Assembly: GCA_965242595.1 (NCBI GenBank)
Contig: OZ251464.1
Span: 1,982,235 to 2,046,234, forward strand
Source of the DNA: Alphaproteobacteria bacterium
Lineage (GTDB): Bacteria > Pseudomonadota > Alphaproteobacteria > SP197
Length of the DNA stretch: 64,000 bases
Direction: 5' to 3'
Shown: one piece after another, positions 1 to 58,810 of the stretch
Layout: every line of letters starts with the position of its first letter
Position numbering within the stretch: position 1 is the stretch's first letter
Notes under the pieces: generated by a model
The model's database searches: none
Told to the model about the DNA's origin: nothing
The model's input: only the letters and a program-made list of their open reading frames with translations
Program-made: the position numbers and the translations under genes

Positions 1-3000
1 GATGGTGGTCGCCGCCCCCGACGGGCGCGACAGGGTAGCGCGGACAGTCGCCGCCCCGCCGCTCTCCGAGATCGCCGCCGGCGACAGCGCCAGCGTCACC
101 CCCGGCGCATCGTCGTTGTCGGTGGTGGTCACAGACACATCCACGTCGGCGATGCCGTTGTAGTCGGAGCCGCTGGCGCTGGAAGTATCCAGGCGCACAT
201 CCCAGGTGACGGTGCCGTCGTCGATATTGTCGTCCACCCCGGTCACCGTCACCACCTGATTGGTGTTCCAGTTGCCCGAACTCCCGGCCGTGAAGGTCAG
301 GGCGGAAGGCGATACCCGGCCCTCGCCGGCATCCTGGCTGGTCACCGTCACCGTCACCGCCTGCGAAGACATCGTGGCCTGGCCGGGATCCGTCGCCAGC
401 TTCACGGTGAAACTCGCCTGCCCGCGCCCCTCGCTCGCCTGGCCGGTCACCGTGCCCACATCCAGGCCCAGCTCGTCGTCGGCGTTGACGGCATAGATGA
501 ACACGTCGGAGAGCGCGTCGTAGAAGCTGTCGGCCGTGTCGGCCGTGTTCACCGCCAGCGTCACCCGGTAGTTCTGGCTGCCGTCGGCCGTGCCGGGCGA
601 GGGATCGTTCACCCCGGTCAGCGTCACCGTCTGCGCCGTCTGCCAGTCGCTGGAGGTGAAGGTCAGCGACGACGGCGACGCCGTGCCCTCGCCCGTGTTC
701 GAGCTGGTGACATCGATCACCACATTCGCGGTCGGCCCGGTGGCCAGGGTGATGTCCACCGTGGCCGTGCTGCCATCCTCCGAGGTTCGCAGCCGCGAAC
801 TGGTGCTGGTGGTCTCCGACATGACGATGGCCGCCTGGTCGTCGTCGCTGATGGTCAGGGACGCGCCGGTCACGCTGCCCACGCCGTGGCCGTTGGTCGC
901 CGCCGCCCCCACCGTCACCATGTTGTCTGTCGCATCCACCTGGTTGTTCACGGCCGTGATCGTCACCGTGCCGCTGGCGGTGGTGGCGCTGGCGGCGATC
1001 ACGATCCGCCCCGCCGCCCCCGCCGGCACCGTGAAGACCCCGCTCTGCGCCGTCACCGTCACCGTGGTCGGCTGGCTGGAAGGCCGCTCCAGAACCGCCG
1101 AGACCGCCGCCGCGCCGCCATTCTCGGTGATCGTGGCCGGCTGGACCGAAAGCGTCACCCCCGGCGCCGCATCGTCGTCCTCCAGCGTCAGCGTCGCCCC
1201 GGTCACGCTGCCCGCGCCCCGGTCGTTGGTCAGCGTCGCCGTCACCGTCGCCGTCCGGTTGGGTTCGTCGATATCGTTATCCACCGCCGTGATCGCCGCC
1301 GTGTCGCTGGCGGCGGCGGTGGCGAAGGCCGCGATCACGATGGTGGCGTCCGAACCCACCCGATAGGCCGCGCCCTGCGCCGCCATCACCGTCACCGTGG
1401 TCGCCACCGCCGAGGCCCGCGACAGGGTGGCGCTCACCGCCGACGTGCCACCGTTCTCGGAAATCGAGGCGGGAGAAAGCGCCAGCACCGCCCCCGGCGC
1501 CGCGTCGTCGTCGTTCAGCCTCAGCGTGGCGGCGGTGACGGCCATGGTGGTGGAATCGGCGCTGGCCCGGTCGTTCGTCACGATGGCCGTCACATTCGCC
1601 TGGCGACCGGGGCTGCCCTGGTGAACGTTGTCGTTCACCGCCGTGATCGTCACCGTCCCCGAGGCGTTCACCGTATCCCCAGCCGCGATCACGATCTGCC
1701 CCGCCGCCCCCGACGGCACCGTGAACGCCCCGGTCACGCCCGTCACCGTGATGGTGGTCGCCGCCCCCGACGGGCGCGACAGGGTGGCGCGCACCGTCGC
1801 CACCCCAGCGTTCTCCGAGATCGCCGCCGGCGTGAGCGCCAGCGTCACCCCCGGCGCCGCGTCATTGTCGGTGGTGGTTACAGGCACATCCACATTCGCC
1901 AGCGCGTTGTAGTTGGTATCGCCGCTGGCGGGGTCCAGCCGCACATTCCAGGTGACGGTGCCGTCGTCGATATTGTCGTCCTCCCCGGTCACCGTCACCG
2001 CCTGGGTCGTGCTCCAGTCGCCCGGCTGGAACGTCAGGGTGGAGGGCGAGACCCGGCCCTCGCTGGCATCCTGGCTGCTCACCGTCACCGTCACCGCCTG
2101 CGCCGGCTGGGTTCGCAGCCTCACGGTGAAGCTCGCCGTCCCACCCCCCTCGGTGGCCTGGCCGCTCACCGTGCCCGTCACCAGGCCGTATTCGTCGTCG
2201 TGGTTGACGGCATAGACGGTCGCGGTCGCAACCATGTCATAGGTGTCGTCGGCCGTGTTGGTCTGATCCACCTCCACCGTCACCTGGTAGTTCTGGCTGC
2301 CATCGGCAAGGGTATCGTCCTGGCCGGTCAGGGTCGCGGTCTGGGCCGTCTGCCAGTTGCTGGCCGTGAAGGTCAGCGACCCGGGCGAGACCGCCCCCTC
2401 GCTCGTGCCGGAGCCGGCCACGGCCAGGTCCAGCTCCACATCGCCGGTGGGCTGGCTGGTCAGCGCCACGGTGAAACTCGCCGTCCCGCCCCCCTCGTCG
2501 GTTTGCAGCCGCGCCGTGGTGGAGGGGGTGGGCGCCAGCGCCAGGCCGGCCGTGTCGTCGTCGGTGATGGTCACCTGCGGGTGGGCGGCGGCGTTCACCC
2601 GGTGGTCGTTGGTCTCCCCGATAAGCACGTACGGCGCGTTGGCCCCCGCGTCCACATCGTTGTCCAGCGCCGTGATCGTCACCCTGTCCGCGCTGGTGGT
2701 GGCGCCGGCCGCGATCACGATCCTCCCCCCCGCGCCCGTCGGCACCGTGAAGATGTTTTGCAGCCCCTGCACCGTCACCGTGGTCGCCGCGCTCGACTTG
2801 CCCGACAGCACCGCCGACGCCGTCGTCATCCCACCATTCTCGGAAATCGACGCAGACGACAGCGTCACCGTCACCGTCGGCGCCGCCTCGTCGTTCTCCA
2901 GCGTCAGCGTGACAGCGGTCGGGTTCGCCACATTGTTGCCGCCCGCCGCCGTGCCGGAGACCGTCACCTGCTTGTTGGGCGCATCCACATCGTTGTCGCT

Positions 3001-6000
3001 GGCCGTCACCGTCACATCCCCGCCGCTGACGGTGACACCGGCGGCGATGGTCAGCGTCCTGGCGGCGGAAAGGGCGAAGTCCGCCGCCACCGCGCCCGTT
3101 CCGGGCGCCGCCGCCACCGTCACCGTCACCGCTTCGCTGGAGGCGCCCGAAAGCGTGGCCGTCACCGACGCCACCCCGTTCGTCTCCGAGATCGACGCCG
3201 GCGACAGCGCCAGGGCCAGTGTCGGCAGCGCGTCGTCGTCGCTCAGCGTCAGCGTGACAGCGGTCGGGTTCGCCACCCCATTGCCGCCCACCACCGTGCC
3301 GGAGACCGTCACCGACTTGTCCGGCGCATCCACCATGTTGTCGTTGGCCGTCACCGTCACCGCGCCGGCGCTGGTGGTGCTGCCGGCGGCGATGGTCAGC
3401 GTCTTGGCGGTGGAAAGGTCGAAATCGGCCGCCGCCGCCCCCGTCCCAGGCGCCGCATCCACCGTCACCGTCACCGCTTCGCTGGAGGCGCCCGAAAGCG
3501 TGGCCGTCACCGTCGCCACCCCGCCGTTTTCCGAGACCGCGCTGGCCGACAGCGCCAGGGCCACGGTCGGCAGCGCGTCGTCGTCGGTGAGCGTCAGGGC
3601 GACATCCGACGGGTTCGAAAGCAGGCCGTGGCCGCCCGCCACACTGGCGGAGATCGTCACCTGCTTGTCCGGCGAGTCCACCATGTTGCCATTGGCCGTC
3701 ACCGTCACCACGCCGCTGCTGGTGGTGGCGCCGGCGGCGATGGTCAGCGTCTTGGCCATGGAGAGCGTGAAATCGGCCGCCGACGCGCCGGTCCCGGGCG
3801 CTGCCGCCACCGTCGCCACCACCGCCTCGTCCGATTTGCCCGAAAGCGTGGCCGTCACCGTCGCCACCCCGCCGCTCTCCGAGATCGCCGCCGGCGCGCG
3901 GGCCAGTGTCAGTGTCGGGGTGGGGTCGTCGTCGTTCTTGGTGACATCCACCGTCTCGTCGTCCAGGCCGTTGTACTTGCCGTCGCTACTGGCCGGGTCC
4001 AGGGTAATCTCCACCGCCAGACTCGCCGGATCGTCCCGGTCGTCGTCCACCGCCGTCACCCGCAGCGTCTGGGTGGCGTTCCAGTCGCTGGCGCTGAACA
4101 CCAGCGTCTTCGCGGTCGCGAAGGCTTGCGCATTGGCGTCGCCGGCCGCCCTGGCCAGCCGCACCTCGTCGCCATCGCCGCTGGTCGCCGTCACCGTCAC
4201 CGCCGCCGTCGGCTTGCTGGTCAGCCTCACCGTGAAGGTCTGCTCCGCTCCGCCCTCCGTCACCGTCAGCGTGCTCTCGGAGACCGTCAGCCCGGCCACA
4301 TCCACATCGGTGGTGCGCACCGTCTGCGGGCGCACGCTGGCCCCGCCAATCACATGATAGGCATCTGTGGGCTCATCCGGCGTGTCCGGGAACAGGCGCA
4401 GTGTGTAGTCGTCGTCGCCATCCACCACCTGGTCGCTCACGCCGTGCAGCGTCACGGTCTGCGCCGTCTCCCAGTTGCTGGCGGTGAAGGTCAGCCGCGT
4501 CGATGCCGCCGCCGTCCCGCCCCCCGCAGACACCAGCCCCTCATCCGACTCGTCGCTTTTCACCGCCACCGTGATGTTGGTGGTGGGCTGGCTGTTCAGC
4601 TTCACGGTGAAGGTCTCGCTGGCCCCTTCGGCCACGCTCAGCCACACCGGACAGGGCGCCCGGCGGCAGCGCGGAAAGGCCGGGGCCGTCACCAGGGCGG
4701 CGCGGTCGTCCTCCCAGATCCGCAGTTCCACATCGGCCGGGGCGGCGATGGTCAGCGTACTGCTGGGGGCGCCCTTCACCACCACCTTCTTGCGGGTCAC
4801 TGTGTCGTCCACGAGGGAGTCGATACGGTCGTCCACGGCCGTAATCGTCACCACGCCGGTGCTGGCGGTGGCGCCAGCCGCAATGATCAGCTTGGTGTTG
4901 GCGGAAAAGCTGAAATCGTCCGCCGCCGCGTTGGTTCCCGCCGTCGCCGAGACGGCGATCGTCACCGCCGCGCTGGCCGGGGTGCTCAGCCGCGCCGTCA
5001 CCGTGGTCATGCGCTCGGAACCCGGCGCCGTGGCCAGCTCCTTGATGGCGTCCGCCTCGCCCGAGATCGGGTCCGACAGCGCCAGCGTCAGCGTCGCCGT
5101 GTCGTCGTCCTCCAGCGTCAGCGTCAGCGACGATGGCGTCCCCACGTTGTTGCCGCCCGTCACCATGCCGGAGACCGTCACCGACTTGTCAGGCGAATGG
5201 ACGTTGTTGCCATTGGCGGTCACCGTCACCGTGCCGGCGCTGGCGGTGGCGCCGGCGGCGATGGTGAGCTTCGTGTTGCTGGAAAGGTCGAAATCGGCCG
5301 CCGCCGCGTTGGCCCCGGGCGCCGCCCCCACCGTCACCGTCACCGCCTCGCTCGACTTGCCCGAAAGCGTCGCCGTCACCGTCGCCACCCCGCTGCTCTC
5401 CGAGATCGACGAAGACGACAGCGCCAGCGTCACCGTCGGCAGGCTTTCGTCGTCGGTCAGCGTCAGGGTGAGATTGGACGGCGCCGCTATGTTGTTGCCG
5501 CCCACCGCGGTGCCGGAAATCGTCACCGACTTGGGCCCCGAATGGCGGTCGTTGCTATTGGCCGTCACCGTCACCGTGCCGGCGCTGGCGGTGGTGCCGG
5601 CGGCGATGGTCAGCGTCTTGGCGCTGGAAAGGTCGAAATCGGCCGCCACCGCCCCGGTTCCGGCCGCCGCCCCCACCGTCACCGTCACCCCTTCGCTCGA
5701 CTTGCCCGAAAGCGTCGCCGTCACCGTCGCCACCCCGCCGGTCTCCGAGATCGAGGAGGACGACAAGGCCAGCGTCACCGTCGGCAAGGTTTCGTCGTCG
5801 CTCAGCGTCAGGGTGACATCCGATGGCGCCACCACCCCGTTGCCGCCCGTCACCGTGCCGGAGACCGTCACCGACTTGTCCCCCGAATGGACGTCGTTGC
5901 CGCTGGCCGTCACCGTCACCGTGCCGGCGCTGGTGGTCTGCCCGACGGCGATGGTCAGCGTCTTGGCGGCGGAAAGGCCGAAATCCGCCGCCACCGCCCC

Positions 6001-9000
6001 GGTCCCAGCCACCGCCCCCACCGTCACCGTCACCGCCTCGCTCGACTTGCCCGAAAGCGTCGCCGTCACCGTCGCCTCGCCGCCCTGCTCCGAGATCGAG
6101 CTCTCCGACAGCGCCAGCGTCACGATGGGCAGGGTTTCGTCGTCGGTCAGCGTCAGGGTGAGATTGGAAGGCGCCACCACCCCGTTGCCGCCCGTCACCG
6201 TGCCGGAGACCGTCACCGACTTGTCAGGCGAGTCCACATCGTTGCCATTGGCCGTCACCGTCACCACGCCGGCGCTGGCGGTGCTGCCGGCGGCGATGGT
6301 CAGCGTGGTTCCCGTCTGGGCGAAGTCCGCCGCCACCGCCCCGGTCCCGGCCGCCGCCCCCACCGTCACCGTCACCGCTTCGCTGGAGGCGCCCGAAAGC
6401 GTGGCCGTCACCGACGACACCCCGCCGGTCTCCGAAATCGAGCTTTGCGACAGCGCCAGGGTCACCGTCGGCAGGGTTTCGTCGTCGGTCAGGGTCAGGG
6501 TCGCCGTGGTGACGGCCATGGTGGTGGAATCGGCGCTGGCCTGGTCGTTCGCCACCGTCGCCGTCACCGTCGCCTGGCGACCGGAGCTGCCCTGATGCAC
6601 GCTGTCGTTCACCGCCATGACGGTCACCGTGTCGCTGGCGGCGGTGGTGTCGCCGGCGTCGATCACGATCTGCCCCGCCGCCCCCGACGGCACCGTGAAG
6701 GCCCCGGAAACCGCCGTCACCGTCACCGTGGTGGCCGCGCTGGAGGGATGCGAGAGCGTCGCCGAGACCACCGAGCTGCCGCCGTTCTCGGCAATCGAGT
6801 CATCCGACAGCGCCAGCGTCACCCCCGGCGCCGCCTCGTCGTCGCTGATGGTCAGCGTGACGTCGTCCGGATCCGACGCGCCATCGCCGCCATCTACGGT
6901 GGCGGAGACCGTCACCTCCTTATCCGGCGCGTCGGCGGTGTTGTTCATCGCCGTCAATGTCACCACGCCGGTGCTGGTGGTGGCAGCGGCGGCGATGGTG
7001 AGCAGGGTTCCCGCCTGGGTGAAATCGGTCCCCGCCCCGGGCGAAGCCGAAACCGTGACGGTGGTCCCTTCGTTGGCCGCCTTGTCCAGCGTCGCCGTCA
7101 CCGTCGCCACCCCGCCGTCCTCCGAGATCGAGCTCTCCGACAGCGCCAGCGTCACCGCCGGCTTGTCGTCGTCTATGACCGTCACCGTCACCCCGATGGG
7201 GCGCTGCGCATGGGCCACGTTCCGCCCCACATCGCCGAGTCCGTAGTCGGCCACGACGTATCTGAGGCGCAGGGTGTTGTCCTCGTGGCCGGAGTCCGCG
7301 AGGGCATTCACGGTCACCGTCTGGGGCGTGTCCCAGGTCGTGGTCGTGAAGGTGTAGTTTTGCCCCCTCATGGGGGATAGTTGATTGTCGCCCCCCAGCG
7401 CGAGGCCGATGTCGGGGTAGAGGCCGACGCTGACCCACTGCGCCAGCCCAGGAGGCGGTTCGGTGTCCAGGACAAAGGTGAACGTCTTGCTGGCGCCCTC
7501 CTCGGTCAGGGTCATGGTGGTGGGGTTGAAGGTCACGCCTGCCGTGTCGTCGTCGGTCAGCGTCAGGTCCACCGTGGCTGGCGCCGCCACCCCATGGCCG
7601 CCCGCCATGGTGGCGGAGATCGTCACCTGCTTGTCGTTCGTATCCACCAAATTGCCATTGGCCGTCACCGTCACCGTGCCGGCGCTGGCGGTCTGCCCGG
7701 CCGCGATAGTCAGCGTCTTGGCGCTGGAGAGGGTGAAATCGCCCGCCACCGCCCCGGTCCCGGCCGCCGCCCCCACCGTCGCCACCACCGCCGCGCTCGA
7801 TTTGCCCGAAAGCGTCGCCGTCACCGTCGCCACCCCGCCAGTCTCCGAGATCGACGAGGACGACAGCGCCAGCGTCACGGTGGGCAGGGTTTCGTCGTCG
7901 CTCAGCGTCAGCGTGACATCCGACGGCGCCGCCACCCCGTTGCCGCCCGTCGCCGTGCCGGAGACCGTCACCGATTTGTCCGGCGCATCCACATCGTTGC
8001 CATTGGCCATCACCGTCACATCGCCGCTGCTGGCGGTGCTGCCAGCGGCGATGGTCAGCGTCGTGGCGGCGGAGAGGTCAAAGTCGCCCGCCACCGCCCC
8101 GGTCCCGGCCGCCGCCCCCACCGTCACCACCACCGCTTCGCTCGACTTGCCCGAAAGCGTCGCCGTCACCGACGAAACCCCGCCGGTCTCCGAAATCGAC
8201 GCCGGCGACAACGCCAGGGCCACCGTCGGCAGCGTGTCGTCTTCCGTAATGGTCAGGGTGACATTCGCCGGGTTCCCCACGCCGTGGCCGCCCGCCACCG
8301 TGCCGGAGACCGTCACCGACTTGTTCGCCGCGTGGACATCGTTGTCTTCGGCCGTCACCGTCACATCGCCGCTGCTGGCGGTGGCATTGGCGGCGATGGT
8401 GAGCGTGTTCTCCATGGAGAGCGTGAAGTCGTCCGCCCCCGCCCCGGCCCCGGCCGCCGCCCCCACCGTCACCACCACCTCCGCGCTCGATGCGCCCGAA
8501 AGCGTGGCCGTCACCGACGCCACCCCGCCGTTTTCCGCAATCGACGCCGGCGCCAGCGCCAGCGTCACCATGGGCGCCGTCTCGTCGTCGGTGAGCGTCA
8601 GCGCCGCGCCGGTCACGGCCATGGTCTCCGAGTTGGCGGCTGCCTGGTCGTTGGCCGCCGTGCCCGTCACCGTGGTGGCGCGCCCGGCGCCGTCAGCGCC
8701 GCCCTGATACACGCTGTCGTCCACCGCCGCCACGGTCGCCGTGTCGCCAGCGTTCACGGTATCGCCAGCGGCGATGACGATCACAGCGTCCGAACCCACC
8801 GTATAGGCCCCGTCCACCGCCGTCACCGTCACCGTGGTATCCGCGCTGGAGGGATGGGAGAGCGCCGCCGCTACCGTGGTCTCGCCGCCGTTCTCGCCGA
8901 TCGAGGCTGCCGACAGGCTCAGCGTCACACCCGGGGCATCGTCGTCGTCGGTCAGCGTCAATGCGACCCCGGTCGGGGCCGCCACGCCATTGCCGCCGCT

Positions 9001-11430
9001 GGCCGTGGCGGCAACCGTCACCTGCTTGTCGGGCGCATCGCCGTCGTTGTCCTCGGCCGTCAGCGTCACGCCGTCGCCGCCGCTGGCGGTGGCCCCGGCG
9101 GCGATGGTCAGCGTCCCCCCGCCGGAAAGGGTGAAATCGTCCGCCGCCGTCACCGTCACCACCACCGCCTCGCTGGAGGCGCCCGACAGCTTCGCCGTCA
9201 CCGTCGTCATCTCGCCATTTTCCGAAATCGAAGCCGACGACAGCGCCAGCGTCACGACCGGCAGCGCGTCGTCGTCGGTGAGCGTCAGCGTCACCGCCGC
9301 CGGCGCCCTCACATCGCCGCTCGCCTCCCCCGCAACCAGCATCCGCTTGTCCGGCGAGTCGATGCTGTTGCCCACCGCCGTAATCGTCACCGTGCCGGTG
9401 CTGGCGGTGGCCCCGCTGGCGAACACCAGCTCCGTCGTCGCCGACAGCGTGGCATCGCCCACCATGGCCCCCGCCCCGGGCGTCACCGTCACCGTAACGG
9501 TGGCCGCCCCGGCGGCCGCCTCGTCCAGCGTCGCCGTCACCGTCGTCACGCCGCCGGTCTCGGAGATGGTGGAGGACGACAGCGCCAGCGCCGCCTTGGG
9601 CACGGCGGTGATGGGGAGCCACTCGCCGTAGTAGTAATAAGTTGTTATGCCGTCGGGGAAGAGGCCGCCATGCGTGACGAGGACGACCACGCCGTCATTG
9701 TCGATCATCGCCTGGGTAAGACGGATCGTCCTGGACCCGCCGCTGCCGGTGGCCCGGCTGCAAATGGCGCCCTCGGTCGGCGCGGGGCCGCGATTTGAGG
9801 CGAGTCGCCTGACCGTCCTGTAAGCGCACGCCCAGACCCATCGATCCCCCAAGCTCCTCCCGGTAACGGTGATCGTTTGCGGGTCGGTCTTGCCCTTCAG
9901 CGACGCCGTGGTGACGTCATAGGTACCGAGCCCCGTTACCCAGCGCCTGTCGGTCCCGGTGGGCACGGTGCCGTCATTGTCGGTGACGGTCAGCGTCACG
10001 CTGGCCGGGTTCGCCACCCCGCCGCCGGCCGCGCTGCCCGACACCGTCACCTGCTTGGCGGCCCCGCGCATATCGTTGTTGACGCCCGTCACCGTCACCG
10101 TGCCGCTGCTGGCGGTCGCCCCGGCGGCGATGGTCAGCGTCCGCGTCAGAGACAATGTGAAGTCCCGCGCCGTCGCCCCGGTGCTGGGCGCCGCCGCCAC
10201 CGTCACCGTCACCGCCGCGCTGGAGGCGCCCGAAAGCCGCGCCGTCACCGTCGCCACCCCGCCGCCCTCCGAGATCGACGAGGGGGACAGCCCCAGCGTC
10301 ACCATCGGCGTGCCTTCGTCGTCGATCAGCGTCAGCGTGGTGGCTTCGGGCGCCCGGATGTCGCCAGCAACGCTGCCCGAAATCGTCACCTGCGCGTTGG
10401 GCGCGTCGGCGCTGTCGTCCATGGCGGTGATGGTGACTGTGCCGCTGCTGGCGGTGGCGCCGTTCGCGAACACCAGCCTCGTATTGCCAGAGAGCGTGAA
10501 ATCCGTGCCCGCGCCGGGGCTGGCCGCCACCGTGACGGTCGCCGCCCCGGAGGCCGGCTTGTCCAGCACCGCCGTCACCGTGGCCACCCCGCCATTTTCC
10601 CGGATCGACGAAGACGACAGGATCAGCGTCGCCTCCGGCAGCGAGACGATGGGCACCCATTCGGCGTAGAGATAGAAATGTCTGCCCGACGACTCCTCCA
10701 ACACCACAATGACCACGCCGTCATTGTCGATCATCGCCTGGGTCAGCGTGATCGAGTTGGGCGTGTTGTTGGTGGTAAGCTGGGTGCAGCCCGCGCCCGG
10801 TCCGGTGTTGGTGTAACCCTGGGTTGGCTGCGTGGCGTCTCTGGTGGCGCAGGCCCAGAAATCGACGAGGCGCTCCCTACCCCCTCGCGTCCTCACCGCC
10901 AGTGGCTGGGCGGTGGTCTTGGCCAGCAGCGGTGACGTGGTGATGTCCCAGTCGTTGGCTGTAGGGGCGCCGTTTCGCCACGTGGTCGCGGTGACCGACG
11001 GCTCGTTGTCGGCGATGGTCAGCGTCACGTCGGCCGGGCCGGTCAGGCTGCCGCCGCCGCCCGCGGCGCTGCCCGCCACCCTCACCATCTTGTCGGGCGC
11101 GTCGATGTCGTTGTTGACCGCCGTAATCGTCACCGTGCCGGCGCTGGCGGTGGTGTTGGCGGCGATGGTGAGCGTGGTGCCCGTCAGCGTGTAATCCGCC
11201 GCCCGGGCGCCGCTGGAGGCGACCGGCGCCACGCTGACCGTCACCGTCACCGCCGCGCTGTTCGGCGTGTTCAGACTGGCCGTCACCGAGGCCACCCCGC
11301 CACCCTCCGATATCGAAGCCGGCGACAGGCGCAAGCTCACACTCTGCGCCCAGGCCGGCGCCGCGGCGGCAAGCGCCAGCGCAGCCAGCAGGACGGCGAA
11401 ACCCACGCGGGAAGCGCGACAACCCCTCAC
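1..11430 (-). CDS. Giant Calx-beta-like repeat adhesin, paralog 2. This is the 5' partial, about 3800 codons; the gene continues past the window start.
   Basis: Reverse translation of 1..132 gives VTTTDNDDAPGVTLALSPAAISESGGAATVRATLSRPSGAATTI, the same repeat type as the large ORF. The frame stays open from the window edge up to a GTG at 11428-11430 that follows an in-frame TAG. The N-terminus reads VRGCRASRVGFAVLLAALALAAAAPAWA/QS, a signal peptide with an AWA cleavage motif. A GGGGGA Shine-Dalgarno-like motif sits ~5 nt upstream. It is absent from the ORF track because no stop lies within the window. Confidence 0.8.
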   Translation of the reverse strand, partial: MRGCRASRVGFAVLLAALALAAAAPAWAQSVSLRLSPASISEGGGVASVTASLNTPNSAAVTVTVSVAPVASSGARAADYTLTGTTLTIAANTTASAGTVTITAVNNDIDAPDKMVRVAGSAAGGGGSLTGPADVTLTIADNEPSVTATTWRNGAPTANDWDITTSPLLAKTTAQPLAVRTRGGRERLVDFWACATRDATQPTQGYTNTGPGAGCTQLTTNNTPNSITLTQAMIDNDGVVIVVLEESSGRHFYLYAEWVPIVSLPEATLILSSSSIRENGGVATVTAVLDKPASGAATVTVAASPGAGTDFTLSGNTRLVFANGATASSGTVTITAMDDSADAPNAQVTISGSVAGDIRAPEATTLTLIDDEGTPMVTLGLSPSSISEGGGVATVTARLSGASSAAVTVTVAAAPSTGATARDFTLSLTRTLTIAAGATASSGTVTVTGVNNDMRGAAKQVTVSGSAAGGGVANPASVTLTVTDNDGTVPTGTDRRWVTGLGTYDVTTASLKGKTDPQTITVTGRSLGDRWVWACAYRTVRRLASNRGPAPTEGAICSRATGSGGSRTIRLTQAMIDNDGVVVLVTHGGLFPDGITTYYYYGEWLPITAVPKAALALSSSTISETGGVTTVTATLDEAAAGAATVTVTVTPGAGAMVGDATLSATTELVFASGATASTGTVTITAVGNSIDSPDKRMLVAGEASGDVRAPAAVTLTLTDDDALPVVTLALSSASISENGEMTTVTAKLSGASSEAVVVTVTAADDFTLSGGGTLTIAAGATASGGDGVTLTAEDNDGDAPDKQVTVAATASGGNGVAAPTGVALTLTDDDDAPGVTLSLSAASIGENGGETTVAAALSHPSSADTTVTVTAVDGAYTVGSDAVIVIAAGDTVNAGDTATVAAVDDSVYQGGADGAGRATTVTGTAANDQAAANSETMAVTGAALTLTDDETAPMVTLALAPASIAENGGVASVTATLSGASSAEVVVTVGAAAGAGAGADDFTLSMENTLTIAANATASSGDVTVTAEDNDVHAANKSVTVSGTVAGGHGVGNPANVTLTITEDDTLPTVALALSPASISETGGVSSVTATLSGKSSEAVVVTVGAAAGTGAVAGDFDLSAATTLTIAAGSTASSGDVTVMANGNDVDAPDKSVTVSGTATGGNGVAAPSDVTLTLSDDETLPTVTLALSSSSISETGGVATVTATLSGKSSAAVVATVGAAAGTGAVAGDFTLSSAKTLTIAAGQTASAGTVTVTANGNLVDTNDKQVTISATMAGGHGVAAPATVDLTLTDDDTAGVTFNPTTMTLTEEGASKTFTFVLDTEPPPGLAQWVSVGLYPDIGLALGGDNQLSPMRGQNYTFTTTTWDTPQTVTVNALADSGHEDNTLRLRYVVADYGLGDVGRNVAHAQRPIGVTVTVIDDDKPAVTLALSESSISEDGGVATVTATLDKAANEGTTVTVSASPGAGTDFTQAGTLLTIAAAATTSTGVVTLTAMNNTADAPDKEVTVSATVDGGDGASDPDDVTLTISDDEAAPGVTLALSDDSIAENGGSSVVSATLSHPSSAATTVTVTAVSGAFTVPSGAAGQIVIDAGDTTAASDTVTVMAVNDSVHQGSSGRQATVTATVANDQASADSTTMAVTTATLTLTDDETLPTVTLALSQSSISETGGVSSVTATLSGASSEAVTVTVGAAAGTGAVAADFAQTGTTLTIAAGSTASAGVVTVTANGNDVDSPDKSVTVSGTVTGGNGVVAPSNLTLTLTDDETLPIVTLALSESSISEQGGEATVTATLSGKSSEAVTVTVGAVAGTGAVAADFGLSAAKTLTIAVGQTTSAGTVTVTASGNDVHSGDKSVTVSGTVTGGNGVVAPSDVTLTLSDDETLPTVTLALSSSSISETGGVATVTATLSGKSSEGVTVTVGAAAGTGAVAADFDLSSAKTLTIAAGTTASAGTVTVTANSNDRHSGPKSVTISGTAVGGNNIAAPSNLTLTLTDDESLPTVTLALSSSSISESSGVATVTATLSGKSSEAVTVTVGAAPGANAAAADFDLSSNTKLTIAAGATASAGTVTVTANGNNVHSPDKSVTVSGMVTGGNNVGTPSSLTLTLEDDDTATLTLALSDPISGEADAIKELATAPGSERMTTVTARLSTPASAAVTIAVSATAGTNAAADDFSFSANTKLIIAAGATASTGVVTITAVDDRIDSLVDDTVTRKKVVVKGAPSSTLTIAAPADVELRIWEDDRAALVTAPAFPRCRRAPCPVWLSVAEGASETFTVKLNSQPTTNITVAVKSDESDEGLVSAGGGTAAASTRLTFTASNWETAQTVTLHGVSDQVVDGDDDYTLRLFPDTPDEPTDAYHVIGGASVRPQTVRTTDVDVAGLTVSESTLTVTEGGAEQTFTVRLTSKPTAAVTVTATSGDGDEVRLARAAGDANAQAFATAKTLVFSASDWNATQTLRVTAVDDDRDDPASLAVEITLDPASSDGKYNGLDDETVDVTKNDDDPTPTLTLARAPAAISESGGVATVTATLSGKSDEAVVATVAAAPGTGASAADFTLSMAKTLTIAAGATTSSGVVTVTANGNMVDSPDKQVTISASVAGGHGLLSNPSDVALTLTDDDALPTVALALSASAVSENGGVATVTATLSGASSEAVTVTVDAAPGTGAAAADFDLSTAKTLTIAAGSTTSAGAVTVTANDNMVDAPDKSVTVSGTVVGGNGVANPTAVTLTLSDDDALPTLALALSPASISETNGVASVTATLSGASSEAVTVTVAAAPGTGAVAADFALSAARTLTIAAGVTVSGGDVTVTASDNDVDAPNKQVTVSGTAAGGNNVANPTAVTLTLENDEAAPTVTVTLSSASISENGGMTTASAVLSGKSSAATTVTVQGLQNIFTVPTGAGGRIVIAAGATTSADRVTITALDNDVDAGANAPYVLIGETNDHRVNAAAHPQVTITDDDTAGLALAPTPSTTARLQTDEGGGTASFTVALTSQPTGDVELDLAVAGSGTSEGAVSPGSLTFTASNWQTAQTATLTGQDDTLADGSQNYQVTVEVDQTNTADDTYDMVATATVYAVNHDDEYGLVTGTVSGQATEGGGTASFTVRLRTQPAQAVTVTVSSQDASEGRVSPSTLTFQPGDWSTTQAVTVTGEDDNIDDGTVTWNVRLDPASGDTNYNALANVDVPVTTTDNDAAPGVTLALTPAAISENAGVATVRATLSRPSGAATTITVTGVTGAFTVPSGAAGQIVIAAGDTVNASGTVTITAVNDNVHQGSPGRQANVTAIVTNDRASADSTTMAVTAATLRLNDDDAAPGAVLALSPASISENGGTSAVSATLSRASAVATTVTVMAAQGAAYRVGSDATIVIAAFATAAASDTAAITAVDNDIDEPNRTATVTATLTNDRGAGSVTGATLTLEDDDAAPGVTLSVQPATITENGGAAAVSAVLERPSSQPTTVTVTAQSGVFTVPAGAAGRIVIAASATTASGTVTITAVNNQVDATDNMVTVGAAATNGHGVGSVTGASLTISDDDQAAIVMSETTSTSSRLRTSEDGSTATVDITLATGPTANVVIDVTSSNTGEGTASPSSLTFTSSDWQTAQTVTLTGVNDPSPGTADGSQNYRVTLAVNTADTADSFYDALSDVFIYAVNADDELGLDVGTVTGQASEGRGQASFTVKLATDPGQATMSSQAVTVTVTSQDAGEGRVSPSALTFTAGSSGNWNTNQVVTVTGVDDNIDDGTVTWDVRLDTSSASGSDYNGIADVDVSVTTTDNDDAPGVTLALSPAAISESGGAATVRATLSRPSGAATTI
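260..4900. repeat. Multi-kb block of gene 2 homologous (roughly 85-95% nt) and largely collinear with gene 1 segment 20150..26500
   Basis: Antisense ORFs are near-identical at a constant offset of 19,897 bp: 1397..1624 vs 21294..21521, 1628..1912 vs 21525..21809, and 1913..2215 vs 21810..22112. The offset shifts by ~1.7 kb further on (4475 vs 26100). Confidence 0.7.
9620..9965 (-). other. Insert module copy in gene 2 (second)
   Basis: Verified reverse translations: VTLTVTDNDGTVPTGTDRRWVTGLGTYDVTTAS... and ...GSRTIRLTQAMIDNDGVVVLVTHGGLFPDGITTYYYGEWLPITAV. Confidence 0.55.
10640..10975 (-). other. Insert module copy in gene 2 (N-proximal)
   Basis: Verified reverse translations: VTLTIADNEPSVTATTWRNGAPTANDWDITTSP... 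and ...QAMIDNDGVVIVVLEESSGRHFYLYAEWVP. Confidence 0.55.
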
Positions 11431-11482
11431 TCGGTCCCCCTCGACAGGCGAGCGCAGCTATCTGGCAAGCCCCCATCAAGAA

Positions 11483-14041: not shown

Positions 14042-14061
14042 CGGCTTCCTCCTCACCGGCA

Positions 14062-45200: not shown

Positions 45201-48200
45201 GCCGGCGCCACCGGGGCCGCCGTCACCGTCACCGTCATCGCCGTGCTCGGCGGCAAGGGCAGCCGCGCCGTCACCGTCGCCGCCCCGGCCTGGCCGCCAT
45301 CCTCTTCGATGCGCGCCGACGACAGATGCAGCGTCACCCGCGCGCCATCGTCGTCGAGATTGGCCGCCCGCACCTCGCTGCTCGCCAGGGCGCGATAGCC
45401 GGCGTCGCCGGGCGGCGTGGCCGTGGCCGCCGCGCTGTCCGCATCCAGCGTGATGGCATAGCTCACATCGCCGTCCACCGGATTGGCAGGCGCGTCGTTC
45501 TGGCCGTGAACCGTCACCGTCTGCGCCGTGCTCCAGCTGGTGGCGTCGAATGTCAGCGTCGCCATTGCCGCCGCGCTCGCGCCGCTGGCGACCGAAATCA
45601 GCCCCTCGCCCGTATTGCCGCTGCTCACCGTCACCGTCACCGCCGCCGTCGGCGCGCTGGCAAGCGCCACCGTGAAGCTGTCCGTGGTTCCCGTCTCGCT
45701 GGTCTGGGTCGAACCCTGGCTCTCCACCACCGTCAGCCCCGCCGCGTCGTCATCGACATTGGTCACGCTCACCGTGACGTTCCCCAGGCCGCGATAGGCG
45801 CCGTCGCCCGCGCTGTCCGGGTTGAGCGTGACGGCATAGCTGGCGTCGCCATCGTCCGCGTCGTCGTCCACGCCCCGCACCCGCACCTCCTGGCCCACAT
45901 TCCAGTCGGACGCGCTGAAGCTCAGCGTCCCCGAACTGCCCCAGTTGCCGCCGCTATCCACCGACAGCTGGCCCTCGCCCGCCGACCCGGACGGGATCGA
46001 CGCCGCCACCGTCACCGCCGCCACCGGCTGGCTGGAAAGCGCCACCGTGAAGCTGTCCGTGCCTCCCGCCTCGCCGGTCCGGGTCGCCCCCTGGCTCTCC
46101 ACCACCGTCAGCCCCGCCCGGTCGTCGTCGTCGCGGATGAAATTGCTCGCAGTCGAGTCCCTCACATTGGCGTTGACCTGGTTGGTGAGCCTCAGGCACA
46201 CCGACTCGTAGAGGTTCTCGTCGATGTCGTCGTCCAGCACCGTCACGTGGAAGCTGAGGGAATTGCTGCCCGGCGGGATGGTCACCACCCGCCCGGTGAG
46301 GGAGGTGTAGTCCAGCCCCGCGGTTGCGGGGGGACGCGGCCCAGGCGCCCTGCAGGTTCCCAGATTGAACGTGATCGGCAGCTCGCTCCTGCCATCCAGT
46401 TGCAAAACGAAATTCACCTGCCCCGCCTGTCTGTAGGTGAAACTGCTGCCGGGCCTCTGCGCCGCGCCGCTGCGCCCTTCCCAGCCGGCATCGTCCGAAC
46501 TGAAGAGGGTGACCGTCGGCGTTCTGTCGTCGTCGGTCAGCGTCAGCGCCACGTCGGCCGCATCCGCCACCCCGTTGCCGCCCGTCGCCGTGCCCGAGAC
46601 CGTCACCTGCTTGCTGGGCGAATCCAACCCGTTGTTGTTCGCCCTCACCGTCACCGCCCCGGTGCTGGCCGTGCTGCCGGCCGCGATGGTCAGCGTTTTG
46701 GCCATGCTCAGCGTGAAGTCCCGCGCCGCCGCATAGCTTCCCGGCGCCGCCGCCACCGTCACCGTCACCGCCTCGCTGGAGGCGGCCGAAAGCGCCGCCG
46801 TCACCGACGTTACACCGCCCGACTCCGAAATCGACGACGGCGCCAGCGCCAGCGTCAGCGTCGGCAACACATCGTCGTCGCTCAGCGTCAGCGTCGCGTC
46901 CGCCGGCGGCGCCACCCCGTTGCCGCCCACCGCCGTGGCCGAGACCGTCACCTGCTTGTCGGGCGAGTCCACATCGTTGCCGTTCGCCGTCACCGTCACC
47001 GCCCCGGCGCTGGTGGTGCTGCCGGCGGCGATGGTCAGCGTCCTGGCCGCGCTGAGGTCGAAATCCGCCCCCACCGCCCCGGTTCCCGCCGCCGCCACCA
47101 CCGTCACCGTCACCGCCTCGCCCGAGGGATGGGACAGCATGGCCGTCACCGTCGCCACCCCGCCGGTCTCCGAAATCGACGCCGGCTCCAGCGCCAGCGT
47201 CAGCGTCGGCAGCGCGTCGTCGTCGTTCAGCGTCAGCGCCGCCCCGGTGACAGCGCCCACCCCCGGCCCGCTCGCCGCCCGGCCCGTCACCGTGACGGAA
47301 CGGCCGCCGCTGCCCTCATGGGCGTCGTTGTCCACCGCCGCCACCGTCGCCACATCGTCGCCGCCGGCGGTCTGCCCGCCCGCGATGACGATGCTGGCAT
47401 CCGCCCCCGCCGTGTAGCCCCCCTCCACCGGCGTCACCGTCACCGTCACCGCCGCCACCGAGGGATGGGACAGCATGGCCGATACCGTCGCCACCCCGCC
47501 CGCCTCCGCAATCGAGGCCGGGTTCACCGCCAGCGTCACCGAGGGCGGGGCGTCGTCGTCGGCCAGCGTCAGCGCCGCCCCGTTGACGGCGTTGCCGCCC
47601 AGGGCGCTCGCCGCCCTGCCGGTCACCGTCACGCTCCGCCCCGCCGCCCCTTCGTAAGCGTCGTTGTCCGCCGCCACCACCGTGGCGATGTCGGCGCTGG
47701 CGGTCTGCCCGGCCGCGATGGCGATGCTGGCGTCCGCCCCCTGGCCATAGGCGCCGGCCACCGCCTCCACCGTCACCGTCACCGCCTGGCTGGACGGCCC
47801 CGACAGCACCGCCGTCACCGTCGCCACCCCGCCCGCTTCCGTCACCGATGCCGGCCGCGCCGCCAGTGTCACCGACGGCGTCTCTTCGTCGTCCGTAATG
47901 GTCAGCACCGCCCCGGTCACGCCCCCCGCGCCCTGGGCATTGGTCATGCTGCCCGTCACCGCCACCTGCCGGTCCGCCTCGTCGATGGCGTCGTCCAGCG
48001 CCGTCACCAGCGCGGTATCGCCCGCATTCTCGGTTCGCCCCGCCTGGATGACGATATGGCGGGTGGAGTCGTCCACCTCATAGGCGCCCGACAGCGACGC
48101 CACCGTCACCGTCGTCACCGCGCTGGACGGATGCGACAGCGCCGCCGATACCGTCGCCACCCCGCCCGCCTCCGAAATCGTGGCCGGCGCCGCCGTCAGC

Positions 48201-51200
48201 GTCACCCCCGGCGCCGCGTCGTCGTCGTTCAGCGTCAGCGCCACCGCCGCCGGCGCCGCCACCCCGCCACCCGCCGCCAGGCCGGAGATCGTCACCGTCC
48301 CGTTGGGCGCGTCCGTGGCGTTCCCCACCGCCGTCACCGTCACCGCCCCGCTGCTGGCGCTCTGCCCGGCCGCCACCGTCAGCGTCCGCGCCGCCGACAG
48401 GGTGAAGTCCAGCGCCGACGCCCACGCCCCCGGCTGTGCCTGAACCGTCACCGTCACCGCCGCGCTCGCCCCCGCCGACAGGGTGGCCGTCACCGTCGCC
48501 ACCCCGCCCGCTTCCGCGATCGCCGCCGGCTCCAGCACCAGCGCCAGCGTCGGCGGCCCGTCGTCGTCCAGCAGCGTCAGCACCGCATCCGCCGGCGCCG
48601 CTATCCCGCCGCCGGCGCTGCTGCCGGAGATCGTCACCCGCTTGTCCGCCGTGTCGTCGCCATTCCCCACCGCCGTCACCGTCACCACGCCGCTGCTGGC
48701 CGTCGCCCCGGCCGCGATGGTCAGCTTGGTTCCCGTCAGCGTGAAATCGCCCACCGCCGCCCCGGCCCCGGGCGCCGCCGCCACCGTCACCGTCACCGCC
48801 TGGCTGGCCGGATAGGAGAGCGTCGCCGTCACCGTCGCCACCCCGCCCGTCTCCGAGATCGACGACGACGACAGCACCAGCGCGGCCGTCGGGCGGGCAT
48901 CGTCGTCCTCCAGCGTCAGCGCCACCGGGCTGGGCGCCGCCGCCCCGTTGCCGCCGGCAACCGTGCCCTGGACCCGCACCCGCTTGTCCGGCGTCACCGC
49001 CGCATTGCCCACCGCCGTCACCGTCACCACGCCGCTGCTGGCGGTCTGCCCGGCCGCGATGGTCAGCGTCCGCGCCGCCGACAGCGCGAAGTCCCGCGCC
49101 GCCGCCCCGGCCCCCGGCAGCGCCTGCACCGTCACCGTGGTGTCCTGGCTGGACTCGCCCGAAAGCGTCGCCGTCACCGTCGCCACCCCGCCGCTCTCCG
49201 AAATCGACGCCGGCGCCACCGCCAGCGCCACCGCCGGCGTCGCCTCGTCGTCCACCAGGAACAGGAACAGATCCTCGAGGCGATGCGCCGGCACGCCCTG
49301 CCCCAACGACACCCGGCCCTCGATGCGCACCTCCCTGTTGGGCGCATCCACATCGTTGTCCAGCCCCGTGATCTCCACCGCCTCCGTGCTGGCCGTCTGC
49401 CCCGCCACGATGTTCAGCCCGGTGCCCGTGCCGCCCCGCACCGCCTCGGCCCGGTAGCCCGCCACATTGGCGTTCGGCTGGATCGTGACCAGAACCCGCA
49501 CATCCGCCGTCGTCGCCGCGCTCAGCGCCACCGTCAGCGTCGCCACGCCGCCGTTCTCCGAGATCGACGACGACGACAGCGCCAGCGAGGCCCGCGGCGC
49601 CCCGTCGTCGTCGCGAATCGCCAGCATGGCGTCGCCCGGATCCGCCACCCCCAGCCCGCCCGACGCCGCGCCGGAGATCGCCACCCGCTTGTCCGGCGCA
49701 TCCACGCCGTTGTCGCTGGCCGTCACCGTCACCGCGCCCGAACTGGCGGTCGCCCCCGCCGCGATGGTCAGCGTGTTGGCCGCGCTCAGCGCAAAGTCCG
49801 TCCCCGCGCCCGGCGCGGCCGATATCGTGATGGTCACCGGCGCGCTGGAGGGATGCGACAGCACCGCCGTCACCGTCGCCACCCCGCCCGCCTCCGAAAT
49901 CGACGCCGGCGTCACGACCAGCGTCGCCGCTGGCGTGGTGTCGTCGTCGGCGATCGCCAGCCTGGCCGGCGCCACCGCCGCCACGCCCTGGCGGTTGGCC
50001 GCCGAACCCGACACCTCCACCCGCTTGTCGGGCGAATCCACCGGGTTGGCCACCGCCGTCACCGTCACCCGCCCCGTGCTCTCCCGCCGCCCCGCCGCGA
50101 TGGTCAGCGTGGTTCCCGCTTGCGTGAAATCCGCCGCCGCCGCATGGGCCGCCGCCGCCGCCGAGACCGTGACGGTGGTCGCCGAACTGGACGGATGGCT
50201 CAGCACCGCCGTCACCGTCGCCACCCCGCCCGCCTCCGCAATCGTGGCCGGAGTCACGGCCAGCGCCGGCACCGGCGGGTCGTCCTCGTCGCGCAGCGTC
50301 AGCACCGCCGCCGGCGGCGCCCGCACATCGTCGCTGGCCGCCGCCCGCGCCGTCATGCGCCGGTCCGGCGTATCGACCGCGTTGTCCACCCCCGTGATCG
50401 TCACCGTCCCGGCGCTCGCCGTCGCCCCCTGCGCGAATGTCAGCACCGGCGCCGCCGACAGCGCCGCATCGCCCGCCCGCGCCGGCGCCTGCGGCGTCAG
50501 CGACAGCGTCAGCGTCGCCGCCGAAACCGCCGCCTTGTCCAGCACCGCCGTCACCGTCGCCACCCCGCCATTCTCCCAGATCGCCGCCGGCGTCAGCGCC
50601 AGCGTCGCCTTGGGCAGGGCGACGATGGGAACCCACTCGCCGTAGAAGAAATTGGTCTGGTTGCCGCCGCTCCCACCGCGGAGCGTATCCACGACGAAGA
50701 CGACCACGCCATCGTTGTCGATCATCGCCTGGGTAAGACGGATGGTCCTGGACCAGCCGCCGCCGCTGGCCTGGCGGCAAACGGCGCCCTCGGTCGGCGC
50801 GGGGTGGGTGCTTCCAGAGCCTCGACTAACCGTCCTGTACGCGCACGCCCAGATCTGTCGCCGCGACGCGTCCTCCGCAGGCGGCGCGCTAACGGCGATG
50901 GTTTGCGGGGCGCTCTTGCCCAGCAGCGACGCCGTGGTGACGTTAAAATTGTGCGCCTGCCCCCAGCGCCTGTCGTTCCCTGTCGGCGTCCCACCCTCGT
51001 TGTCGGCGATCTCCACGCTCACGCTCGCCGGGTTCGCCACCCCATGGCCCCCCGCCGCCGCGCCGGTCACCGTCACCCGCTTGTTCGCCGCCGCCACATC
51101 GTTGTTCACCGCCGTCACCGTCACCGACCCCGTGCTGGCGGTGCCCTCCGCCGCGATGGTCAGCGCCCGGTTCGCGCTCAGCTGGTAGTCGGTCACCGCC

Positions 51201-57409: not shown

Positions 57410-58810
57410 TCAGGACGAACCGTCGCCACCCTTCGGAAAGCCGTCGCCGTCATGCCGGTCGCCGGTCAGTTCCGGGGCCTGGAGCGCGCGGGCTTCCAGT
57501 TCGATCGGCGTGATTTCGTCAACCATGCTGCCCTTCGGCGCCGCGCCCAGCCTCTCGAATCTCCGCGCAGTCGGCAGAACGCGGCCCTCGAGCGAACCGA
57601 CGCTCATGTTGTAGCGATCGACCGCTTGACGAAGAGCTTTGCCGAGATTGCCCATGCGCCCACCGAAAAATTTGATCCGTTCGAACAATTCGCGGGCAAG
57701 GTCGAACACGGCCTGGGTGTTCTCCGCCAGCTTGTGCTGCTGCCATCCATAAGCGATCGCCTTCACCAGGGCGATGAAGCTCATCGGGGTGGCGATCAGA
57801 ACGCGGTTCGAGACCGCCTGCTCGAACAACTCCGGATCGCGTTCGACGGCCGCCGAATAAAACGGCTCGCCGGGAATGAACATCACGACAAAGTCGGGCG
57901 TGACCGACAGCGCCTGCCAGTATTCCTTCGACGCAAGATCGCGCACATGGTTGCGGACATGATGAACATGGTTCGCCATGTGCTGGGCGCGTTCCTCCTC
58001 GTCGCTGGCCTCCACCGCGGCGAGATACCCCTCCAGAGGCGTTTTCGCATCGACGACGATGGATTTATCACCGGGCAGGCGGATGATGGCATCGGGCCGC
58101 AGACGGCGCTCCTCGCCGACGGTCGCTTGCGTCACGAAATCCACATGCTCGCTCATGCCCGCCATTTCGAGGACGTTCTTCAGCTGATATTCGCCCCAGC
58201 GCCCGCGCGTCTGCGGCTGCCGGAGCGCCTGCACCAGCCGATTCGTCTCCGTCTTCAAACGCAACTGCCCCTCGCTAAGGGTTTTAACCTGCTCCGTGAC
58301 GGCGCTATAGGCCCCTTCCCGCGCCTTTTCGATCTCGCCGACCTTTTGCTCGAACTTGTCCAGGCTCTCGCCGATCGGCTTGACCAGCGTCTCGATCGCC
58401 TGCTGCCTCCTGGCCAGATCCTCGTCGGAACTGGCCTTGTGCTTTTCGAACCGCTCCGTCACCCGATCCAGGAAATTTCTGCTGTTCTTTTCAAGCGCCT
58501 CGGCGGCCAGCAGCGCGAATTTTCGCTCGATCTCGGCAGCCATGCCCTTCAGCTCCTCGACGCGAGCCTCATGGTTCTGCCGTTCCGTCTTCAAACTGGT
58601 CTCGGCGATAGCCTTCTCCCCCAACAGCCGCTCGCGCTCGGACCGCTCGCGCTCCACAGTCTCCGCCGCACTCGCCTCCGCCGCATTCGCCCGCTCCTCA
58701 GCAGCGGCAGTCCTGGAGCGTTCCGGGCGAACGAAGGCCAGCCAAGCGGCGATACCCCCAAGGCCGAACCCGATCACCGCCATCAAAACATCGCCCATCT
58801 CGAACGTCAT
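57410..58810 (-). CDS. rmuC: DNA recombination protein RmuC
   Basis: 466 aa with an N-terminal TM segment and a coiled-coil region. The conserved RmuC block is LRQPQTRGRWGEYQLKNVLEMAGM...VDFVTQ...RPDAIIRLPGDKSIVVDAK. Confidence 0.8.
   Translation of the reverse strand: MTFEMGDVLMAVIGFGLGGIAAWLAFVRPERSRTAAAEERANAAEASAAETVERERSERERLLGEKAIAETSLKTERQNHEARVEELKGMAAEIERKFALLAAEALEKNSRNFLDRVTERFEKHKASSDEDLARRQQAIETLVKPIGESLDKFEQKVGEIEKAREGAYSAVTEQVKTLSEGQLRLKTETNRLVQALRQPQTRGRWGEYQLKNVLEMAGMSEHVDFVTQATVGEERRLRPDAIIRLPGDKSIVVDAKTPLEGYLAAVEASDEEERAQHMANHVHHVRNHVRDLASKEYWQALSVTPDFVVMFIPGEPFYSAAVERDPELFEQAVSNRVLIATPMSFIALVKAIAYGWQQHKLAENTQAVFDLARELFERIKFFGGRMGNLGKALRQAVDRYNMSVGSLEGRVLPTARRFERLGAAPKGSMVDEITPIELEARALQAPELTGDRHDGDGFPKGGDGSS

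Follow-up and report, generated by a model that had tools for sequence, protein, structure and literature searches.

In giant repeat adhesins such as the ice-binding MpIBP of Marinomonas and those of the LapA/FrhA family, a long extender made of β-sandwich domains carries a few binding domains at its cell-distal end, in MpIBP modules that bind sugars and peptides; MpIBP-type adhesins are type I secretion substrates that are held at the N-terminus, with their binding domains (PA14, vWFA and other families) placed near the C-terminus. Type Va autotransporter passengers tolerate closely spaced cysteine pairs only, since only short disulfide loops pass the outer membrane. The sponge aggregation factor is built from a signal peptide, up to 14 Calx-beta domains and a C-terminal Wreath domain, of which the last two exons alone average 523 and 336 bp (PMC5400394). 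Here we describe a module of ~125 residues (120-130 aa) that interrupts the repeat arrays of two adjacent giant proteins, gene 1 and gene 2, encoded on the minus strand of a 64,000-nucleotide stretch of an Alphaproteobacteria bacterium genome (GenBank assembly GCA_965242595.1, contig OZ251464.1, positions 1,982,235 to 2,046,234; hereafter the window, to which all coordinates refer). The window has a G+C content of 70-75% and open frames on both strands. The segment is in all likelihood a copy of an unclassified, autonomous extracellular domain of giant fibres that has a disulfide-closed variable loop; its overall reading as a distal recognition or binding head is an even call.

Compared with the MpIBP design, the anchor here is C-terminal and probably of the autotransporter type, while the module is N-proximal and belongs to an unclassified family. 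With the classical type Va autotransporter adhesins (PF03797), gene 1 shares a signal peptide, a homologue of the C-terminal β-domain, an aromatic end and the restriction of cysteines to close pairs, whereas its passenger consists of ~100 β-sandwich beads (~13,000 aa) in place of a β-helix, and its C-terminal region stays below any Pfam threshold. The sponge aggregation factor resembles these proteins in combining an extracellular Calx-beta array with one unrelated, lineage-restricted domain, and the habitat would also be shared if the genome bins carrying the module are those of sponge symbionts. However, aggregation factors are animal proteins with introns, and the Wreath domain is C-terminal and larger.

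Three copies of the module lie in the window, all on the minus strand. The gene 1 copy spans residues 1719-1845 (50612-50992), reads 'PTGNDRRW...WACAYRTV...PAPTEGAVC...LTQAMIDNDGVV...YGEWVPIVALP' and belongs to subtype B, with a domain E-value of 4e-64 against the hidden Markov model (HMM) of the family. In gene 2, copy 1 (residues 151-274; 10636-11007) is of subtype A and is preceded by the signal peptide and a single Calx-beta-like repeat, and copy 2 (residues 496-620; 9598-9972) is again of subtype B. Searching both giant proteins with the module HMM gave domain E-values of 1e-55 to 1e-65 for the three copies, whose family scores are 178-208 bits, and no fourth copy at E<0.05 in the 17,400 residues of gene 1 and gene 2. 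A preliminary description of this DNA had placed the copies at 50610-50985, ~10640-10975 and ~9620-9965, coordinates that are correct to ~30 bases; its consensus PTGNDRRW...VTTASL...WACAYRTV...PTEGAVC...RTIRLTQAMIDNDGVV...YGEWVPI is reproduced exactly by minus-frame translation of 50610-50985. It had also made the idea dependent on the copies being alignable, and the three align end to end, the gene 1 copy being 62% identical to gene 2 copy 2 and 40% identical to gene 2 copy 1, a likeness far beyond chance.

A signature block, LTQAMIDNDGVV (50702-50737 in the gene 1 copy; 10711-10746 and 9685-9720 in the gene 2 copies), is invariant across the three copies, and family-wide its T, I, D, N, G and V are conserved in at least 90% of members. 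A Ca2+ site at 'DNDG' was considered and dropped, the second Asp being Gly or Arg in distant members. Each copy holds two cysteines, and not three as had first been counted: C1768 (50843-50845) and C1790 (50777-50779) enclose a hypervariable loop (50777-50845) in the gene 1 copy, and C203/C224 (10849-10851/10786-10788) and C544/C566 (9826-9828/9760-9762) are the corresponding codons in gene 2. From its conservation and close spacing, the pair probably forms a disulfide.

The repeats around the module are of a known kind, as had been noticed at the outset, since the array matches Calx-beta and LapA in Pfam, unlike the module. Similar in size, all-β, extracellular and likewise strung as beads, the Calx-beta (PF03160) and LapA (PF20579) units nevertheless have no detectable homology to it. 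Aligning a 31-module profile with a profile of 44 flanking repeats by hhalign gave a probability of 0.2% (E 0.31; 16 aligned columns). The module possesses an invariant cysteine pair, invariant tryptophans and a terminal hairpin of 13+15 residues, its predicted strand pattern differs from that of the repeats, and it ends in ...EWVPIVALP where flanking units end in ...LT(I/L)xDD(D/E), so that the acidic, Ca2+-binding ...DDD/DDE ending is absent. The aromatic richness claimed earlier is borne out by a tryptophan content of 3.3% in the module vs 0.6% in the array of gene 1; the module is also richer in cysteine. Although Calx-beta-like repeats adjoin the module in most carriers, it is flanked by fn3 or He_PIG domains and not by Calx-beta in two of the related proteins collected below (P0015 and P0019). 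Because profile comparison, Pfam searches, ending, Trp/Cys content, strand pattern and these other flanks all set it apart, the module is an independent, portable domain: the segment is autonomous and not a decayed repeat.

Pfam at E≤10 gave no match for the three window copies and only scattered single chance matches for 30 family members, and neither Calx-beta nor LapA was matched at that threshold in the three copies or in any of the 30 members. NCBIfam likewise gave nothing consistent for the 30 members, only scattered single chance matches, and a sequence profile search of the PDB with the module found no match. The initial impression that the segment resembles no family is thus upheld by these searches, on which the module appears to be a previously unclassified domain family, with no counterpart in Pfam, NCBIfam or the PDB.

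Relatives were sought in several collections. A word-indexed search covering 5.8 billion proteins returned one match, a 184-aa fragment of a frameshifted giant gene, whereas an exhaustive profile search covering 1.84 billion representatives returned 25 proteins at E≤1e-3 and 17 at E≤1e-10. P0020, one of the 25, was rejected as a false member that was matched through repeated 'GEWVPI' words, which leaves about 24 representative proteins; each genuine member is a long protein built of repeats and bears a signal peptide. No relative was found in the IMG/VR viral contigs scanned or in JGI metagenome contigs (241 million records). Screening 185,579 species, each represented by a single genome, yielded 37 loci, all in uncultured genome bins whose record titles read Alphaproteobacteria, Gammaproteobacteria, Nitrospirales, Candidatus Binatia and Thermodesulfobacteriota. 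By six-frame search each locus holds one to three module copies, and each genome one to five loci, the five module loci being in the Thermodesulfobacteriota bin OZ251569.1, to which L030 and L034 belong. The 184-aa fragment comes from L001 (ENA metagenome assembly ERZ19489113, contig s15112.ptg015956l, 6491-20555), where frameshifts have split the giant gene into several called genes. As frameshifts break gene calls, protein catalogues under-represent these giant genes. Many database entries of the family (P0002, P0006, P0014 and L019) finish in out-of-frame tails rich in Arg and Gly.

Altogether 79 non-identical copies were collected, and every one (79/79) has exactly two cysteines, whose positions align and whose spacing is 13-45 residues (mode 20-21). 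Conservation across the family follows the pattern W...DVTT.SL..K..Q.I / (V)WAC / P...C / I.LTQAMIDN(D/G)GVV / Y.(E)WVPI; the conserved Trp of WAC stands two residues before the first Cys. A working definition of the family, by which W...DVTT.SL..K..Q / WAC / C / LTQAMIDNGGVV / EWVPI follow one another over 110-145 aa and exactly two cysteines are present, holds for the three window copies and 79 unique members.

AlphaFold2, run on a 30-sequence alignment, gave a mean predicted local distance difference test (pLDDT) score of 89 and a predicted template modelling (pTM) score of 0.84. The model is an all-β sandwich with short strands in its first two thirds, a one-turn helix at QAMID and a long terminal hairpin (residues 97-109 and 112-126, 13+15 residues); the LTQAMIDNDGVV block makes up a strand end, the one-turn helix and the onset of this hairpin. 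When a repeat-module-repeat segment was modelled (pLDDT 84, pTM 0.60), the same module fold was retained, with a loose linker on the N-terminal side (pLDDT ~64) and a tight junction of 3 residues on the C-terminal side (pLDDT 84-92). The module is therefore predicted, and confidently, to fold on its own.

Foldseek comparison of the module with the PDB and BFVD found nothing at E≤1e-3. The best alignments were to macroglobulin (MG) domains of complement C3 and to antibody V domains, with template modelling (TM) scores of 0.31-0.45, root-mean-square deviations (rmsd) of 7-10 Å, E-values of at least 0.011 and 9-18% identity. C3 MG domains share the general two-sheet sandwich, and their sequence and structure matches are insignificant (E 0.011-0.05, TM 0.31-0.36, rmsd 7-9 Å, no Pfam match). 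Immunoglobulin (Ig) V domains (TM 0.39-0.45, thus below 0.5; E 0.015-0.06) share a two-sheet β-sandwich and a conserved frame that bears variable loops and a disulfide. The Ig B-F disulfide joins cysteines ~65 residues apart, with the core Trp after the first Cys, whereas in the module the cysteines are 13-45 residues apart and the Trp of WAC stands before the first one; here also the fold matches are insignificant. From the lack of a significant match we regard the module as an Ig-like sandwich of generic type, to which no solved structure comes close. For the three-domain model Foldseek returned generic β-sandwich strings (integrin legs, cadherins, the NCX1 Calx-beta pair and C3). Since the best matches are insignificant, the fold offers no functional clue; no carbohydrate-binding module (CBM) or lectin is among the significant fold matches, there being none.

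Gene 1 lies in an uninterrupted open frame of 13,619 codons (15290-56146, minus strand) and spans 15287-56080 with a probable ATG at 56078-56080, encoding ~13,600 aa. Gene 2 (11457..1, minus strand; probable GTG at 11428-11430) runs off the window and exceeds 3,819 aa. In order, gene 1 has a signal peptide, a 600-aa non-repeat head that contains He_PIG, more than 100 repeats of ~113 aa with occasional inserts, and a probable C-terminal β-barrel anchor, while gene 2 starts with a signal peptide ending in ...APAWA (before QS), a repeat, module A, two repeats, module B and further repeats. The repeat period is 110-120 aa in both proteins, with units of ~113 aa, and the Pfam matches of gene 1 are Calx-beta (1e-42), LapA (1e-21) and He_PIG (2e-21). 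The N-terminus of gene 1, MGCKIVKPAGG...ALALVVALVMQLGAGVPEAAA before HVG, is signal-peptide-like when read by eye, and its final residues (...LELRLAW) end in an aromatic, as in type Va autotransporters.

The C-terminal 466 aa of gene 1 (15290-16687, minus strand) are homologous to the autotransporter β-domain. Out of 52 homologues, many with E-values of 1e-100 to 1e-132 bear a precomputed PF03797 assignment, and the region matches the C-terminus of P0025 (E 1e-65), for which the PF03797 score is 24.9 bits where the cut-off is 26; the gene 1 C-terminus has no Pfam match at E≤1 and none in the PDB. Because its C-terminal homologues carry PF03797, gene 1 would be a very large autotransporter-type fibre, best read as held in the outer membrane at the C-terminal end, while the N-terminal end lies at a great distance from the cell. 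A passenger of ~13,000 aa of β-sandwich beads is unusual for type Va secretion. Beyond the signal peptide gene 1 has 14 cysteines that form 7 pairs, 5-55 residues apart, and every cysteine of the mature gene 1 and gene 2 proteins sits in such a closely spaced pair.

Relative to the anchor, the module is always placed at the opposite end: in every full-length carrier it lies in the N-terminal half, the half distal to the anchor. It directly follows the signal peptide in at least 12 of them (P0015, P0017, P0022, P0024, P0025, L030, L031, L032, L034, L035, L036 and L038). Anchors with an autotransporter-like barrel occur in gene 1, P0003, P0015, P0018, P0022 and P0025; dockerin-like repeats stand at the anchor end of P0005, P0016 and P0019, the last of which matches Pfam Dockerin_1 only at E 0.03; L030 and L034 are short carriers of roughly 500-600 aa that end in a hydrophobic helix and a basic tail. 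The tail of these two (their last ~50 aa), ...GGGCAISGEN.FASPAAWFSSP.LPAMLL.TLLF..RFRK, has a Gly/Cys motif and resembles a C-terminal sorting tag, and its comparison with curated CTERM sorting families gave no significant match (JDVT-CTERM at E ~0.5).

Variation within the family is concentrated in loops. Core columns have low entropy, and the peaks fall at residues 36-48, 56-72 (the Cys-closed loop), 76-84 and 102-117 (the hairpin tip). In a set of nine close orthologues (identity of 70% or more), 61%, 50% and 50% of the columns vary in segments 56-72, 76-84 and 102-117, the first being the Cys-bounded loop, as compared with 16-18% in the core. Such variability in loops is as expected for a recognition surface.

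Position and variability together suggest that the module serves in recognition or binding, although for ligand binding by the route that follows we would put the chance slightly under even. The fibre would be exported by the Sec pathway and the cysteine pair oxidised in the periplasm, after which the passenger would be threaded out and fold outside the cell, its N-terminal part coming to lie farthest from the cell. In this distal part the module, which is probably surface exposed, would hold out a conserved scaffold (W...DVTT.SL..K..Q; WAC; C; LTQAMIDNGGVV; EWVPI) bearing four variable loops, and these four loops could form the surface that recognises a ligand. If the probable habitat is a guide, this ligand may belong to the sponge matrix or to some other cell surface, and subtypes A and B, with one to three copies per protein, could supply different specificities.

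Several observations weigh against a distal recognition role. The sequence and fold searches that were run returned no similarity to a ligand-binding, lectin or CBM family, the best fold matches (C3 macroglobulin and Ig V) being insignificant at E-values of at least 0.01 and TM 0.3-0.45, and neutral drift likewise yields loop variability in any β-sandwich. The gene 1 copy does not occupy the tip, since the 600-aa head and about ten repeats precede it and place it ~1,700 residues from the N-terminus. The suggestion of a 'tip domain' in the preliminary description is thus apt for the at least 12 relatives in which the module comes first after the signal peptide, and fails for gene 1, where it is internal. 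As to its further suggestion of a lectin-like domain, no carbohydrate-binding family was matched in sequence or in fold, and nothing supports a lectin identity specifically.

The internal position in gene 1 suits a different view, in which the module is a rigid, disulfide-braced structural connector that introduces a kink, sets the register, changes the stiffness or braces a junction, and binds no ligand. The modelled junctions point the same way, since the last strand and LTQAMIDNDGVV, the best-conserved block, run into the next repeat through the 3-residue linker with pLDDT 84-92, the N-terminal linker being loose (~64). Conservation also speaks for it and against recognition: between gene 1 and its orthologue P0004 the module is 83% identical and the surrounding array 74%, which fits a structural role equally well. 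However, in at least 12 proteins the module comes straight after the signal peptide, with nothing upstream to join, its copy number (1-3) and the spacing between copies differ, and a spacer has no evident need for variation concentrated in loops, one of them a disulfide-closed loop of variable length. We consider a purely structural connector, the chief rival reading, unlikely, if still to be reckoned with.

Less probable again is self-association, whereby modules of neighbouring fibres or cells bind each other, for example the B module of gene 1 with that of gene 2, and so bundle the fibres or aggregate the cells. The presence, in one genome, of two adjacent giant genes with subtype-B modules at 62% identity would accord with this, as would the shuffling of module subtypes among paralogous giants and the autotransporter type of the anchor, in comparison with self-associating autotransporters. 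Direct support was not found, however; the spread over five phylum/class labels is easier to reconcile with a common external ligand than with self-recognition specific to a strain, and homophilic contacts would tend to be lost through the loop differences seen among close orthologues. As to the shuffling itself, gene 2 copy 2 is closest to copy 2 of P0003, whereas P0002, a gene 2 orthologue whose first module is almost identical to that of gene 2, has a second copy closest to the gene 1 module, which suggests recombination or gene conversion between giant genes.

That the module is an oxidised, fast-folding unit which paces or checks translocation, or nucleates folding outside the cell, has very little to recommend it: the confinement of all mature cysteines of gene 1 and gene 2 to close pairs would agree with such an aid to secretion or folding, but autochaperone regions adjoin the barrel at the C-terminal end of the passenger, whereas the module is at the opposite end and emerges last, and it also occurs in carriers without a barrel, namely L030 and L034 with their hydrophobic helix and basic tail and those ending in dockerin-like repeats. 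Finally, a degenerate Calx-beta repeat, the explanation on which the preliminary description had said its proposal might founder, shares with the module a similar size (~125 vs 110-120 aa), a location at repeat boundaries and an all-β sandwich, yet it is rejected as scarcely credible by the hhalign probability of 0.2%, the absence of any Pfam Calx-beta/LapA match at E≤10, the differing strand pattern, the missing acidic ...DDD ending, the invariant Cys and Trp that repeats lack and the occurrence of the module between fn3 domains.

Additional features of the giant proteins were observed alongside the module. Cysteine pairs outside it, at 54974-55015, 46196-46354, 42050-42073, 26888-27055, 26273-26290 and 17018-17146 in gene 1 and at 4651-4668 in gene 2 (all minus strand), mark further non-standard inserts in both proteins, and one Cys-pair motif, FPRCRRAPCPVW, is common to gene 1, gene 2, P0002, P0003 and P0005. 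A pre-barrel domain with 'ICLPV...VCA..FSPFAVGY' is common to gene 1, P0015, P0018, P0022, P0025, L030 and L034 and weakly resembles PGF-pre-PGF (E 0.016). Opposite gene 1, the plus strand has open reading frames at 20144-30496, 31490-38665 and 44393-51670 (3,450, 2,391 and 2,425 aa), which are most likely artefacts of stop-codon-poor, high-G+C repeat DNA.

The family is extremely rare globally, yet it is present in bins of several phyla. All carriers come from ENA assemblies and accession blocks neighbouring Wellcome Sanger Tree-of-Life submissions. OY282360, an accession that falls well inside the OY2823xx block, appears in PMC12239599 under the name 'Sponge metagenome'; the OY2823xx batch probably derives from a sponge metagenome, a statement that covers that batch only and not the OZ series. 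Literature searches for the accession numbers of the metagenome-assembled genomes returned no direct record, and one sponge genome note lists no such accessions.

The 600-aa head of gene 1 (54350-56080, minus strand) is 82% identical to a locus in a Nitrospirales-labelled chromosome; identity is 75-79% with several Alphaproteobacteria loci and 63-65% with those of Gammaproteobacteria and Binatia (compared were L004, L005, L006, L008, L009, L011, L012 and L026). Judging by these identities, either the giant gene moved between phyla or the bin labels are unreliable. In many of these loci the module stands ~1,700 residues from the start, as in gene 1. G+C content at third codon positions (GC3) is 0.91-0.92 in the giant genes, 0.84 in the modules and 0.63-0.83 in the neighbours (57410-58810, 59009-60370 and 13385-14089, comprising RmuC, a pentapeptide-repeat protein and an Asp-protease-like frame), and several related loci have a like step in G+C, from 0.58-0.63 in the flanks to 0.70-0.74 in the gene. 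Between the window flanks and related loci there is weak similarity only, in the pentapeptide-repeat gene, and no recorded gene was found to encode exactly the flanking RmuC protein. Head identity, module position and GC3 would fit whole-gene exchange among unrelated members of a community, a reading that depends on the bin labels.

Calx-beta proteins are enriched in sponge-symbiotic Actinobacteriota (PMC11706023). As sponge aggregation factors are themselves Calx-beta arrays, mimicry or docking is conceivable but speculative, and we regard it as a long shot that the module is the specificity head of a horizontally shared 'sponge-docking' fibre whose array imitates, or intercalates into, the aggregation factor of the host. 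On such a view, unrelated symbionts (those with Alphaproteobacteria, Gammaproteobacteria, Nitrospirales, Binatia and Thermodesulfobacteriota labels) would have exchanged a giant Calx-beta gene, the disulfide-closed loop would recognise a host-specific component, and the sponge might thereby tell resident from food bacteria.

The module represents a new domain family of a familiar sort, an accessory β-sandwich domain in a giant adhesin, with a putative function. If it is only a structural bead, it matters for annotation alone. Annotations usually treat giant repeat adhesins as monotonous arrays, but it is their few non-repeat inserts that hold specificity; since the fold is predicted confidently and the signature is clear, this family can become a model for annotating such proteins. 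Its global rarity, its presence in bins of several phyla and the close likeness of the giant gene head across labels make the module a candidate marker of gene sharing within one host-associated community, probably a sponge microbiome, and offer a tangible way into the question of which targets the fibres of symbionts bind.

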